A DNA stretch of 64,000 nucleotides from a virus, in IMG/VR virus record IMGVR_UViG_3300005841_000032, positions 1 to 64,000 of that record. One strand, 5' to 3'. Shown piece after piece: positions 6,526 through 57,435 of this stretch. The position numbers and the translations under genes are program-made. The stretch's first letter is position 1, and the number at the start of each line of letters is the position of its first letter. The notes beneath the pieces are model-generated. The model saw only the letters and a program-made list of their open reading frames with translations. It was not told the DNA's origin and searched no databases.

Positions 6526-7243
6526 TTATTAGCCTATCGATCCAACAATTAAAGTCTTCATAAGTCATATAACTTTTAGCCTTATTGCAAGTTAAACAGC
6601 AACTAACAACATTATCTAACTCATAACCTTTATTATTATCAAGCCTGTCAACTCCATTATAATAGTAAAAAGACCAAAAATTTGTTTTTCTTACAATTAA
6701 TAATTGTTTAGCGGGTATTCCGCAATAGTGACAATTCTGTTTAGTTAAATAATAAAATTCTTTTTTGCTTAAATCAAATGATCTACCATTTTTTACAGCG
6801 CTATGCCTATAAGTCGCATATAATCTATTAAAAGTTGAATCGGCCTGTTCAAATTTTTCATTTATATCAATCTTTGCTCTATCTATACCGACCACACTAT
6901 ATCGCAAACAACCACAGCTTTTTTGAAATCTCAATTGCCCTCTGTGAACTTTAGAAATTCTTCCACATTGACACAAACAATTAAAATAAGGAGTTTTGCT
7001 TTTACCACTTCTACTTATTTTATACCCAGCAAATGAAACTATTTTCATTATTCCAACTGATTCTCCTATTCGATCTGCATAATCTTGCTCCTGACATTTG
7101 CCTCTTGGAAATTTTATACCATATTCAGAAGTATATCTCATTACGGTACTTGGGTAAACTCCATTCTCTTTAGCAATTTGCTTAATTGTCTTGCCTTCCT
7201 TTAAGCACTTCTTTAAATATTTCTTATCAGTATATTTTTTCAT
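6494..7243 (-). CDS. HNH homing endonuclease with N-terminal HTH
   Basis: CLCQCG/SCGC, CHYCG, GVDRLDNNKGY..DNVVSCC..CN.AK; start re-called to MKKY at 7243. Confidence 0.8.
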   Translation of the reverse strand: MKKYTDKKYLKKCLKEGKTIKQIAKENGVYPSTVMRYTSEYGIKFPRGKCQEQDYADRIGESVGIMKIVSFAGYKISRSGKSKTPYFNCLCQCGRISKVHRGQLRFQKSCGCLRYSVVGIDRAKIDINEKFEQADSTFNRLYATYRHSAVKNGRSFDLSKKEFYYLTKQNCHYCGIPAKQLLIVRKTNFWSFYYYNGVDRLDNNKGYELDNVVSCCLTCNKAKSYMTYEDFNCWIDRLINVRNERRNMD

Positions 7244-7308
7244 ACTGATTAAAAATACCAAAAATCACTATTACTGATGGAACGTTATCAACCTAAACGT
7301 CTATTTTG

Positions 7309-7383
7309 TGGGCCTTGATGGATTTGAATCAACGACCTACAGATTATGAGTTCTGCCGCTCTAACCATCTGAGCTAAAGGCTC
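7309..7383 (-). tRNA. Degenerate tRNA with CAU anticodon (Ile2/Met-like), possible pseudo-tRNA
   Basis: GAGCCTT-TA-GCTC-AGATGGTTA-GAGC-G-GCAGA-ACTCATAA-TCTGT-AGGTC-GTTGA-TTCAAAT-CCATC-AAGGCCC-A; mismatches in acceptor and T stems; 8-nt anticodon loop; no CCA. Confidence 0.75.
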
Positions 7384-9149: not shown

Positions 9150-9186
9150 TTAAAATAAAATAGGCAAGCCTTTCGACCTGCCTATT
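9150..9186 (-). terminator. Intrinsic terminator
   Basis: ATAGGCAGGTC-GAAA-GGCTTGCCTAT then TTTATTTT. Confidence 0.8.
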
Positions 9187-10024: not shown

Positions 10025-10408
10025 CTATATAACTCTTCTGGATACAAGGAAAGAGCAAAGAGAATCGCAATCCAGATTCCAAACGTAACTATTTTCCAGC
10101 CTTATTGTTTTAACTCCTATTGATTTCAAGTAAATCTCTTTTCGGCTATCCTGTTCTTTTTGCTTTTTCTTGTTGTGAGACTTTCCATCTAGTTCAATAG
10201 TCGTATTTGATTCATGGAAATAGAAATCAGAAATAAAGAATGCTTCGTCTTTGTACCACCCTTTCTGAAAATTCATTTTGAATTTAAATCTATATTTCTT
10301 TTTCAATTGACTTATTAGTTTCTTAAACTGTTTTTCTGTAGCTGTAATATTCTGTCTTAGTTCTTTTTCATATTGCTTGCCTACTTCTAACTTTTTTCTA
10401 TTGATCAT
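10025..10408 (-). CDS. DUF559 / Vsr-like endonuclease
   Basis: LRQNIT.TE, FQ, ISDFY, IELDG.SH, D..K..YL...G...IR..N. Confidence 0.85.
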   Translation of the reverse strand: MINRKKLEVGKQYEKELRQNITATEKQFKKLISQLKKKYRFKFKMNFQKGWYKDEAFFISDFYFHESNTTIELDGKSHNKKKQKEQDSRKEIYLKSIGVKTIRLENSYVWNLDCDSLCSFLVSRRVI

Positions 10409-10504
10409 TATTATATTAGAATCTTATTTTAGTTATTAAAGATACCTATAAGATTATTTAAGTATTTAGTAGTGTATTTCCTTGTGTTATATAATTAGTG
10501 AATT

Positions 10505-10740
10505 GGGTAAAGCACGCCCCGTACTAAGTCTTTCAACATAGGGACGTTGCTATTTGTTGGTTAATTATAGAACCCTACTTGTCGAACGTATTAACCCGTC
10601 CGTCTACTCTTGCCTGTTCGGTTCCTTTCTAAGCACCACGGCTTTGCTTTAAGTAGATGCACCACAGTAACAAATTGTTTTATACTAGCAATAATCGCTG
10701 CTGTACGGCTGCGTCCTACGACCAATTAAAGCTAGTTATT
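10505..10740 (-). ncRNA. Candidate structured ncRNA (~230 nt)
   Basis: No ORF, raised GC, nested stems (ACTAGC/GCTAGT; ATTTGTT/AACAAAT; GCAACGTCCC/GGGGCGTGC with GTT-GAAA-GAC tetraloop). Confidence 0.5.
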
Positions 10741-10741
10741 C

Positions 10742-10872
10742 AAAAAAAAGAAAAACCTCATCGGTTCCCGCTTTTTTTGAAAGATTGCTTAGGTCTTTTT
10801 TAGAAAGTTAGAAAGGAAAGAAACCGAATGAGGTTAATATTTTCAAAACTAACTGCTAAAATACCTAAGCAA
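10742..10872 (-). ncRNA. Candidate c4/CI-like antisense or attenuator RNA (~130 nt)
   Basis: Promoter motif 10876-10883; closing stem 10822-10835/10754-10766 plus U tract; loop CCTAAGCAA complementary to the 5' TTGCTTAGG. Confidence 0.55.
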
Positions 10873-11014
10873 ACGTAAAAATACAACTTATTAATTTATC
10901 TTTTTCAAAATAGTTGTATTTAAATTAAATGAATTTGAGATTTAATGTTTAAGGCGACTTTGATTTGACCTTAGTCGAACATGCCTGAGTGTTAAATCTT
11001 TTAATTGTGAAAGT

Positions 11015-11563
11015 TTATTTGATTCCTATGATCTTTTTAATTGCTTTATCTATCTGTTCGACTGTCAAACCATACATCCACTCACCTCTAACTCTGAATT
11101 TATCAAGGTAACGATGTACCGCATGTTCCTCTTGAATGGAGCCGACAAATTTCTTTAAAAGCTTAATTGTAGGCTTCTGCGCTTGGAGCGTGTATTCGCG
11201 ATGGGAAGGTGATTTGCTAAAACCCACTTTATAGTAACCGGGAAGTGAAGCGTCTTCCATTATATAAATAAATCCTTGTTTACTTTTTATATCTCCATTT
11301 AATCCAATTGGTATATATCGTAGGATTCTTTTATTTTCTTCATTATATACTTGTTCAATGTAAATAAGCTTTAAAAGTTTATTCAGTAGAGTAGGCAGAG
11401 AGGCAATGTTTATATTTAGAGCCTTAGCAATTTGCGAGTCGGTCTCAATGAAGTTGCCAGACTCATCGATATTTTGCTGTATGTAACAAAGCAAAAGAGC
11501 TTCGATAATCGTAAGCTCTTTATAATATTCTGATAAAGGCGTTTGGATTTTAATTTCCATCAA
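11015..11563 (-). CDS. HTH + T5orf172/GIY-YIG-like domain protein
   Basis: N-terminal wHTH (QIAKALNI); GFIYIM..YKVGFS..P..R..LQ, E..VH..L..FRVRGEW. Confidence 0.8.
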   Translation of the reverse strand: MMEIKIQTPLSEYYKELTIIEALLLCYIQQNIDESGNFIETDSQIAKALNINIASLPTLLNKLLKLIYIEQVYNEENKRILRYIPIGLNGDIKSKQGFIYIMEDASLPGYYKVGFSKSPSHREYTLQAQKPTIKLLKKFVGSIQEEHAVHRYLDKFRVRGEWMYGLTVEQIDKAIKKIIGIK

Positions 11564-12567: not shown

Positions 12568-13130
12568 ATATCTAATTTTTTTATTTCTTCTGATAAAGAC
12601 TCATAGTCTGATTTTAAGTATACAGAAGAAATAGATTTCATAAATTCTTCATCGTATTCATCAGCGGTTACTAACATGCCGTAAACTTTAATATCAAACC
12701 ATTTTAGTTGATCTGTAATTTGTTTTACGCCTTGTTTGTAATCAGGTTGACCATCAGATACAATAATAATGATTTTACGAAATCCGGGTCTGCCGTTATT
12801 TACTAATTCATTAACGGCCAATTGTAAGCCGTCAACCATATTAGTTGAACCAGAAGAGTGATAAATATTAGAAATGGCAACTTGTAAAGATTTCTTGTCA
12901 TTTGAAAGAGGTGAATCTAAAACGGCATTAGTGGCAAATGTGACTACTCCTATCTTTACAGTCTCTTCGCTTAATTTGACTTTGTTTAATAATGATAGAA
13001 AAGACTTCTTCATGTATTCCTCATGCCCATTAACTGAAGCAGAAAAGTCCCCCACAATTAAAATATCAATTTGTAAACAGGGATTTTCAGGAGTGATAAG
13101 GATACAAAGAAGAAATAATAAGACTTTCAT
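12558..13130 (-). CDS. vWA domain protein
   Basis: MIDAS DFSAS, GSTN, IIVSDG; hydrophobic N-terminus. Confidence 0.85.
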   Translation of the reverse strand: MKVLLFLLCILITPENPCLQIDILIVGDFSASVNGHEEYMKKSFLSLLNKVKLSEETVKIGVVTFATNAVLDSPLSNDKKSLQVAISNIYHSSGSTNMVDGLQLAVNELVNNGRPGFRKIIIIVSDGQPDYKQGVKQITDQLKWFDIKVYGMLVTADEYDEEFMKSISSVYLKSDYESLSEEIKKLDICL

Positions 13131-13996
13131 AAATATTCTCTTAATTGATCAATATTTTTTAATGCCTTTAATCTTTTTAAAACGCGCGGCTTGAATTTGG
13201 CCACATCCTTACTTTTCATTTTTAATTTTCCAGCTATATTGTCTGTTTGTTGATGATCTTCACCATTTAACCCAAACATAAAAATGAAAATGTCATATTC
13301 GCGTTGACTTAATTGATACAGGAACTTATTCAGATCGAAAGCTAGTGAGCCCTCGATATCCTCTGCATCTATTCCTAATTCATTGTTGCTTAATACATCT
13401 TCAAGGGTATCTTCATTATCATGTTCCTTGCTACTTCCTATGCCGTCTTGCAATGATGGATTATAACCGGCGTGAAGAACGGCTTCAATAATATCATCTT
13501 CATTTAAATCTTGATATCGTTCACATATATCATCTACATTTGGATACCGTTGTAATTTTTGTTCAAGTTCTGAAATGATCTTTTTAATTTTTGTAACAAG
13601 GGCTTCGCGGTTAGCAGGTAATTGAATGGTACGAACATTATAGTCAAATGATGAAATGATGCGTTTTCGAATCCACCATACAGCATATGAAAAGAATTTC
13701 CATTCCTTTCTAACATCAAATCTATAAGCAGCTTCTATGAGACCATCATTGCCTTCGCTGATAAGATCAAGTAATGGAACACCACCGCCTTGATATTTCT
13801 TAGCAACTGATATAACGAATTTGACATTGGCTTTGACTAATTTATCAAGTGAGGAAACATCATTTGTTTTTTGAATCTTGGCAATGAGTATCTTTTCGTC
13901 CGCTTTACTCAGTGGCTCATAATCTCTTATTTCATTAAAGAAACGATTTAGATTATCGTTATAGACGTCAGCCGTTATTTTTCGGGATATTTTCAT
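13127..13996 (-). CDS. RNA polymerase sigma-70 family factor (RpoD-like)
   Basis: LVKANVKFVISVAKKY, DLISEGN.GL..AA.RFD, KFFSYAVWWIR, region 4 LSQRE...FGL. Confidence 0.93.
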   Translation of the reverse strand: MKISRKITADVYNDNLNRFFNEIRDYEPLSKADEKILIAKIQKTNDVSSLDKLVKANVKFVISVAKKYQGGGVPLLDLISEGNDGLIEAAYRFDVRKEWKFFSYAVWWIRKRIISSFDYNVRTIQLPANREALVTKIKKIISELEQKLQRYPNVDDICERYQDLNEDDIIEAVLHAGYNPSLQDGIGSSKEHDNEDTLEDVLSNNELGIDAEDIEGSLAFDLNKFLYQLSQREYDIFIFMFGLNGEDHQQTDNIAGKLKMKSKDVAKFKPRVLKRLKALKNIDQLREYL

Positions 13997-57374: not shown

Positions 57375-57413
57375 AAAATTAAAAAGGCTATGGTTTATTT
57401 CATCCATAGCCTT
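57375..57413 (-). terminator. Intrinsic terminator after sheath-tube-HEG
   Basis: AAGGCTATGG-N10-CCATAGCCTT then TTTAATTTT. Confidence 0.7.
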
Positions 57414-57435
57414 AAAAATACGGTTTGTAATTAAC

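Follow-up and report, generated by a model that had tools for sequence, protein, structure and literature searches.

Genomic setting of the element

The question raised by this locus is what a strongly folded RNA without coding capacity might do between two nuclease genes of a large phage. The IMG/VR record to which it belongs is 110,427 bp long and is rated complete by CheckV; the window, that is, the whole stretch of 64,000 nucleotides analyzed here, is the first 64 kb of that record. The minus strand carries 144 of the 155 long ORFs of the genome, which apparently belongs to a large phage with a virulent lifestyle. The element lies within an ORF-free gap of 606 nt (10409-11014), the second largest in the genome, with a T5orf172-domain gene upstream and a gene for a DUF559 (Vsr-like) nuclease downstream (Table 1). 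Both genes are of a type usually met as free-standing homing endonucleases. The T5orf172 gene is the final gene of an operon that runs into the element, and farther upstream on the minus strand this operon region encodes a sigma factor, of which only regions 2 and 3 were recognized, and a VWA protein.

A sequence-only reading of this stretch had proposed a c4/CI-like antisense or attenuator RNA with two loop-target pairs, which would act as an immunity or termination switch and control read-through into a next RNA and the DUF559 nuclease gene. Every motif listed in that reading was found in place on the minus strand. How these motifs pair with each other, and what the pairing might be for, is considered below.

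Table 1. Positions of the element's parts and of neighboring genes in the window
Feature	Sequence	Position	Strand	Remarks
Phage sigma factor gene		13127-13996	minus	Regions 2 and 3; region 4 not detected
T5orf172-domain gene, upstream neighbor		11015-11563	minus	Pfam PF10544, E = 4.7e-07
Promoter-like motif	GTATTTTTA	10876-10884	minus	TAHHTTTa, variant of the Bacteroidota -7 element
Second -7-like octamer	TACGTTTG	10870-10877	minus	TAnnTTTG, overlaps the promoter-like motif; read from the sequence
Strand a	TTGCTTAGGT (RNA UUGCUUAGGU)	10863-10872	minus	5' side of the helix that closes the long hairpin
Helix two of the long hairpin	UUUUAG	10856-10861	minus	Partner CUAAAA at 10798-10803; MFE and explicit energy evaluation
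Strand b, helix three of the long hairpin	AGUUAG (DNA AGTTAG)	10849-10854	minus	Partner b' at 10806-10811
Arm 1 of the terminator stem	AACCUCAUUCGGUUUC	10820-10835	minus	Within the long hairpin's apical region of 37 nt
Strand b'	CUAACU (DNA CTAACT)	10806-10811	minus	3' partner of b
Direct repeat, 13 nt	CUUUC(U/A)AAAAAG	10807-10795 and 10783-10771	minus	12 of 13 positions identical, 24-nt spacing, flanks a'
Local hairpin	AAAGA/UCUUU	10780-10798	minus	Constrained fold
Arm 2 of the terminator stem	GGGAACCGAUGAGGUU	10754-10769	minus	Constrained fold and duplex test
U tract	UUUCUUUUUUUU	10742-10753	minus	Predicted 3' end of an RNA of ~126 nt
Promoter-like variant	GTATCTTTA	10437-10445	minus	One mismatch to the motif; 28 nt before the DUF559 ATG
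DUF559 (Vsr-like) nuclease gene, downstream neighbor		10025-10408	minus	Pfam PF04480, E = 1.6e-11

Stability and structure of the element

Folding of positions 10735-10885 (151 nt) with RNAfold gave a minimum free energy (MFE) of -42.8 kcal/mol, compared with -23.6 ± 3.2 kcal/mol for shuffled sequences (z = -6.03), and none of 200 shuffles was as good. When the MFE was adjusted for GC content, the 130-nt folding window ranked third among 3677 minus-strand windows genome-wide, and the remaining top windows were ordinary terminators or intragenic hairpins. Both main helices far exceed what chance would produce. When the downstream sequence was shuffled, 1 of 2000 shuffles offered the 10-nt a strand a partner as good as the real one, and for the 16-nt arm 2, ahead of the U tract, 2 of 2000 shuffles of the 103 nt upstream did so. 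The duplex of arm 1 and arm 2 has an energy of -21.6 kcal/mol.

The first of the two helix sets (A) is a long hairpin. In the MFE structure, strand a pairs with positions 10785-10794 through 10 Watson-Crick pairs, and this helix stacks with UUUUAG:CUAAAA (6 bp) and b:b' (6 bp) to form one 22-bp hairpin with small internal loops and a weakly paired 37-nt top, sited at the predicted 5' end of the RNA. The mismatched segments are pyrimidine-pyrimidine internal loops. In this structure the two proposed pairs, a:a' and b:b', are not loop-target contacts; both belong to the three lower helices of one long hairpin. Because a and b form one continuous hairpin together with UUUUAG:CUAAAA, their complementarity is explained without an antisense function, and the earlier drawing, with the stem formed, a' and b' exposed and a and b upstream, represents identical contacts viewed from the other side.

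The second helix set (B) is the terminator stem, formed by 10835-10822 and 10766-10754 and extendable to 10835-10820 and 10769-10754. In its extended form it consists of 8 bp, a 1-nt bulge and 5 bp, followed by a U.G and a C-G pair (15 bp). The U tract is continuous with the UU that closes arm 2, so that the U-rich tract has a total length of 13 nt. Once stem B is formed, a' (CCTAAGCAA, RNA CCUAAGCAA, 10785-10793) becomes the 9-nt loop of the AAAGA/UCUUU hairpin, as had been proposed; this part of the proposal stands when the terminator stem is enforced but not in the MFE structure, where the bases of a' (10785-10794) are instead the 3' strand of the a:a' helix. Five CUUUC/UUUC units are found in the RNA around the 13-nt direct repeat.

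Along the RNA the strands follow the order A5'-B5'-A3'-B3'. The 5' arm of the terminator thus sits in the apical loop of hairpin A, and the two helix sets cross without shared bases, so that only one of the two can be present in a nested fold. With nested folding, the MFE structure with hairpin A has an energy of -37.2 kcal/mol, compared with -24.0 kcal/mol when terminator stem B is enforced, while the lower hairpin A alone has -18.7 and stem B alone -17.0 kcal/mol. Alternatively, A and B could coexist in an H-type pseudoknot, whose linkers would measure 13, 8, and 14 nt. A rough sum of our own, in which two large-loop penalties were removed and a standard pseudoknot penalty was added, puts this pseudoknot at about -34 kcal/mol; with its penalty terms estimated in this way, it would be competitive with the nested fold.

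Which of the two helix sets forms in the nested ensemble depends on the 5' end. For RNAs whose 5' end lies at or upstream of 10870, P(A) is ~0.89 and P(B) ≤ 1e-3, whereas for those starting at or downstream of 10868, P(A) is ≤ 0.02 and P(B) is ~0.3. A shift of the 5' end by 2 nt, from 10870 to 10868, therefore flips the nested fold in silico.

The possibility has to be weighed that the feature acts at the level of DNA, or has no function, for example as a protein-bound palindrome, as the relic of a mobile insertion between homing-endonuclease-like genes, or as an origin-type hairpin. Hairpin A consists of 30 pairs, all of the Watson-Crick type; it contains no G-U pairs that would prove the strand, and both strands would fold alike. 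The flanking T5orf172 and DUF559 genes, typical mobile nucleases, and the AT-rich stretch (19% GC) just 5' of the element also agree with such a feature. However, the genome contains no second copy of the element, and no target duplication flanks it; an origin of the element among paralogues or MITEs was rejected on the absence of a second copy. The pyrimidine-pyrimidine internal loops do not look like decayed repeats, and only the coding strand has a U tract immediately after arm 2. The GC skew is monotonic and gives no origin signal, and a replication origin was rejected for this reason. We consider a DNA-level or functionless feature highly unlikely.

No ORF runs across the element downstream of GTATTTTTA. 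The only frame there, of 12 codons and started by TTG, spans arm 1 and is unsupported. Small ORFs in the gap had no PHROG matches, and the spurious small ORFs across the element had no entry in the protein collection.

Promoter-like motif and predicted start of the RNA

The Bacteroidota -7 element has the form T-12 A-11 H H T-8 T-7 T-6 G-5 and lies 4-5 nt before the start of transcription (PMC6847099). The motif GTATTTTTA reads TAHHTTT-A and is a near copy of this element. Genome-wide, the minus (coding) strand has 17 copies of it and the plus strand 3, whereas its one-mismatch variants show no strand bias (61 versus 58). Since about 2-3 copies per strand would be expected by chance in the whole genome, the presence of the motif at the element by chance is unlikely. 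Several copies stand directly 3' of canonical GC-rich terminators, and an ATG or GTG is found at +1 to +3 of the predicted start in 7 of the 17 minus-strand copies. This pattern suggests leaderless mRNAs, mostly in the region from 47 to 108 kb, which is presumed to be structural. The base after the motif is C at the element, compared with A in 14 of the 17 copies. GTATTTTTA(A) looks like a phage promoter, and a sigma factor in which region 4 was not detected would fit a promoter that is independent of a -35 element.

By the geometry of the -7 element, the start of transcription is predicted at 10871/10870. With this start, the first 8 nt of the RNA would be those of the a strand and the RNA would be ~126 nt long. 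The second, overlapping octamer TACGTTTG would give a predicted start near 10865 and an RNA that excludes the a strand. A G at -9, as in this octamer, is virtually absent from real promoters of F. johnsoniae (PMC6847099), which makes TACGTTTG a weak promoter candidate. Farther downstream, the one-mismatch variant GTATCTTTA is, by its sequence, possibly the DUF559 gene's own promoter.

Minus-strand copies of GTATTTTTA in the window have their 5' base at 340, 7258, 10884, 47228, 51437, 57421, 60964, and 61758. Two of these copies also precede short hairpins at the predicted 5' end of the RNA: at 57380-57421 the hairpin is GGCUAUGG...CCAUAGCC, followed by U5, and at 7220-7258 it is AUCAGUAU...AUACUGAU, with the start codon inside in both cases. 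A general habit of 5'-terminal hairpins in transcripts that start from this type of promoter was considered and rejected, as the pattern was not seen among the copies.

The combination of a promoter-like motif, the lack of an ORF, a very stable fold, and a stem followed by a U tract points to a small non-coding unit. The element is best read as a short non-coding phage transcription unit at which the long operon upstream also ends. The same grammar of an sRNA gene would also suit a stand-alone, trans-acting sRNA whose loops or CU-rich tract pair with mRNAs of the phage or the host. Against this, complementarity to a' or to the whole gap across the 110-kb phage genome reached at best 11-14 nt (E values of 0.2-13) and was not beyond chance, and a trans-acting sRNA is in our view unlikely.

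Termination and its possible regulation

As in an intrinsic terminator, the 15-bp stem abuts UUUUUCUUUUUUUU on the transcribed strand. A terminator scan missed this stem because the 50 nt between its arms are atypical. In the ~8 kb of the minus strand from 18787 to the element, the scan found no other terminator-like site; it was not exhaustive, as it missed both this stem and a canonical hairpin near 9150. Because the element is the first terminator-like structure found on the minus strand after ~8 kb of genes, it probably ends the operon that runs from the sigma factor gene to the T5orf172 gene.

One alternative explanation is a plain terminator at the end of an operon, combined with a hairpin for processing or stability. 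Stem B and the U tract would then always terminate the operon, hairpin A would be a site for a double-strand-specific RNase or a protector of the 3' end, there would be no switching, and the promoter motif would be fortuitous or minor. The place of the element behind ~8 kb of minus-strand genes speaks for this explanation, as do the promoter-like motif of the next gene's own and the 22 near-continuous base pairs of hairpin A, a length that is enough for a substrate of RNase III type. However, transcripts arriving from upstream carry the a strand, and under nested folding their P(B) is ~1e-6, so that the pseudoknot would be needed for termination. The other terminators of this phage are simple GC-rich hairpins with small loops, and the complexity of the structure at this site needs a reason. 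The low probability that GTATTTTTA stands here by chance also argues against a fortuitous promoter. On balance, a plain terminator seems somewhat unlikely.

We tentatively favor a cis-acting terminator/attenuator unit from which an RNA of ~126 nt would be released. If helix B forms in this unit, RNA polymerase would be expected to stop at 10745 ± 3 and a compact small RNA would be released; B could form within the pseudoknot, or when ~8 nt at the 5' end are lacking or occupied. If the full hairpin A closes the loop, only a weak hairpin of 5-7 bp would remain before the U tract, and in this state transcription would continue across the 330-nt spacer into the gene for the DUF559 nuclease. The balance between the two states might be set by where the 5' end lies, by a protein, or by nothing at all. 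Since the 5' arm of the terminator lies inside the loop of the hairpin, the arrangement would amount either to a compact pseudoknot that terminates constantly or to an anti-terminator hairpin that requires the first ~8 nt. If the pseudoknot is constitutive, there would be no switch of any kind.

Two observations on the downstream side bear on regulated read-through. With the promoter-like variant GTATCTTTA in front of it, the DUF559 gene may not need any gating. The stretch of 242 nt behind the terminator (10500-10741, minus strand) is ORF-free and enriched in GC (42-44%), but it shows no excess stability over shuffles (RNAfold z = -0.5), so that regulated read-through would have no obvious cargo there. 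The next RNA that had been placed in this region folds, by the same measure, no better than shuffled sequence. The only Rfam match in it was CRISPR-DR51 at 10625-10660, with a chance-level E value of 4.6, and a basic frame of 44 codons started by TTG (10591-10725) matched no family.

The predicted behavior can be compared with known attenuation systems. The 6S RNA of phage lambda (PR'-tR') is a short, terminated leader transcript. Like this RNA and the classical attenuators, the element is predicted to have a promoter followed by an intrinsic terminator at ~126 nt, and as in classical attenuators alternative helices are predicted to decide whether the terminator stem can form. Unlike them, it has no leader peptide, no aptamer known to Rfam, and no identified antiterminator protein; with regard to a sensor, no riboswitch, T-box, or leader of Rfam was matched in the region. 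In addition, its helices cross without shared nucleotides, and a pseudoknot is therefore an alternative to a switch.

It is also conceivable that the element is a riboregulator, in which a 2-nt difference in the start site, provided by the overlapping -7-like elements, or a factor that binds the a/a' helix, chooses between a pseudoknotted RNA of ~126 nt and read-through. Start-site-dependent 5' hairpins are known from pyrC of E. coli and Salmonella, and the homing endonuclease I-TevI of phage T4 is controlled from a late promoter. The element recalls these systems in that its fold flips in silico when the 5' end moves by 2 nt, in that the starts predicted from the overlapping -7-like elements are ~5 nt apart, and in that the next gene encodes a homing-endonuclease-like nuclease. 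In contrast to both, the predicted output is termination rather than translation, the start sites are predicted only, and TACGTTTG has the disfavored G at -9. A riboregulator of this type would be new, with read-through directed, according to the model, at a homing-type nuclease gene, and we regard it as quite unlikely.

If the proposed function is real, the element would be among the very few candidate regulatory ncRNAs of large virulent phages whose promoter signals are of the Bacteroidota type, and the RNA biology of such phages is almost unexplored. The placement of a terminator arm in a hairpin loop would, if real, be instructive for pseudoknot-assisted termination or for start-site-dependent attenuation.

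Comparison with c4 and CI RNAs

RNAs of the C4 family belong to the immunity operons of temperate phages or plasmid prophages, where they lie upstream of antirepressor or replication genes. Their loops are complementary to downstream targets at the start of the controlled gene in the same transcript, further complementary sites lie upstream in that transcript (a1/b1, seqA), and the RNAs are matured from a longer transcript through processing by RNase P and PNPase. The a1/b1-c4 layout of P1 reportedly goes back to work of Citron and Schuster in 1990. The c4-icd-ant arrangement of P1 has been described (PMC8198154).

The resemblance of the element to these RNAs consists in a short phage RNA in the leader of a transcript that it possibly controls, with internal sites a' and b' that complement sites just upstream (a and b). 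When B is formed, the order of a, b, and then a stem with both b' and a' unpaired recalls the a1/b1-c4 layout of P1, and the a' and b' loops could in principle pair with upstream and downstream copies of a and b in the same transcript and so cause immunity or premature termination. However, in RNAs that include the a strand, hairpin A takes up a' and b'. In contrast to the c4 RNAs of P1 and P7 and the CI RNA of P4, the element shows no sequence or structure match to RF01695: the Rfam C4 model had no match at E ≤ 10 in the 801-nt region or in the whole 110-kb genome. It also occurs in a phage without genes for lysogeny or an antirepressor. No Phage_integrase, Resolvase, or ANT domain was detected in the 110-kb genome, which thus gives no sign of a temperate lifestyle that such immunity RNAs serve, and the proposed immunity function is not borne out.

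A convincing downstream target pair, which the c4 and CI systems possess, is absent as well. The proposed second target, TGCTTAG (minus strand, 10635-10629), is 7 nt long and no more than expected by chance, and this a-like site stands 235 nt from the only b-like site. The latter is a perfect 10-mer complement to the b' region at codons 5-8 of the DUF559 gene (10394-10385), and it speaks in favor of a c4-like target. A complementarity of 13 bp was also noted between 10828-10816 and 10629-10617. We saw three perfect 10-mers in the AT-rich region of 800 nt, where by our estimate about two are expected; at this density, the downstream complementarities are at the level of chance. The duplex between the element and the start region of the DUF559 gene (-15.7 kcal/mol) was no better than the mean of shuffles (-16.8 kcal/mol). 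A comparison of long sequences with the downstream RNA by duplexfold gave 2 of 200, a value that is not meaningful because unlimited internal loops were allowed.

Finally, the gene downstream encodes a DUF559 nuclease and not icd/ant or a replication operon, and the presence of GTATCTTTA in front of it weakens the idea that a c4/CI-like RNA controls this nuclease. What can be kept of the proposed termination switch is, as a hypothesis, a structured minus-strand RNA with a terminator that possibly gates read-through; the c4/CI mechanism is not supported. A c4/CI-like antisense RNA appears to us very improbable indeed.

Relatives of the element and further features of the genome

With the gathering thresholds of Rfam, the window yielded only a tRNA, and cmscan of 10300-11100 at E ≤ 10 gave five chance-level matches (snoR32, RAGATH-27, CRISPR-DR51, a baculovirus element, and an miRNA). 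The gap had no blastn match in 50,697 phage records. IMG/VR was searched with the T5orf172, DUF559, and sigma proteins and with a DUF559 alignment, and no relatives were found; the GTDB genomes contained only DUF559 relatives of 28-31% identity in unrelated MAGs, and the JGI metagenomes contained no close relatives. Exact DNA patterns (the stem arms; arm 2 with the U tract; a...a') returned nothing or unrelated chance matches. The closest relative of the sigma factor gene in GenBank is 34% identical, without synteny, and the DnaE relative is 37% identical. The DUF559 protein has closer relatives, P0002-P0006, with 53-80% identity. They come from Logan assemblies, and P0004 is present in NCBI as well; their contigs reach 117 kb (117,025 bp for P0003, 78,193 bp for P0004, and 19,694 and 12,770 bp for P0002/P0006). 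The structure is real and statistically strong, and it is an orphan without a known family whose function we can only infer.

A retron ncRNA had also been considered, on account of the terminal inverted repeats and the UAGC that follows a, and was rejected: the only reverse transcriptase (RT) gene lies ~79 kb away, and the spacing between a and a' is 69 nt, compared with the 150-250 nt required. This RT gene (genome 89369-90325, minus strand, outside the window; L013:1570-2526) encodes 318 amino acids and matches RVT_1 with E = 7.6e-14, and its best NCBIfam match is a group II RT/maturase at 107 bits, far under the cut-off. ORF-free gaps are present upstream of it (90326-90527) and farther downstream (88289-88797), and blastn of 88001-90600 showed no template/variable-type repeat elsewhere in the genome.

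Several free-standing nuclease genes of the homing-endonuclease type are present, namely, those of T5orf172 and DUF559 (10025-11563) and an HNH_3-like ORF near the RT gene (genome 87815-88288), which suggests that the genome is rich in mobile nuclease genes. The tRNA gene of the window (7308-7383, minus strand) scores 47 bits with Rfam and is assigned as '???' by ARAGORN. Its acceptor stem looks imperfect, and its anticodon loop, read by eye as CUCAUAA, gives the anticodon CAU, of the Met or Ile2 type.
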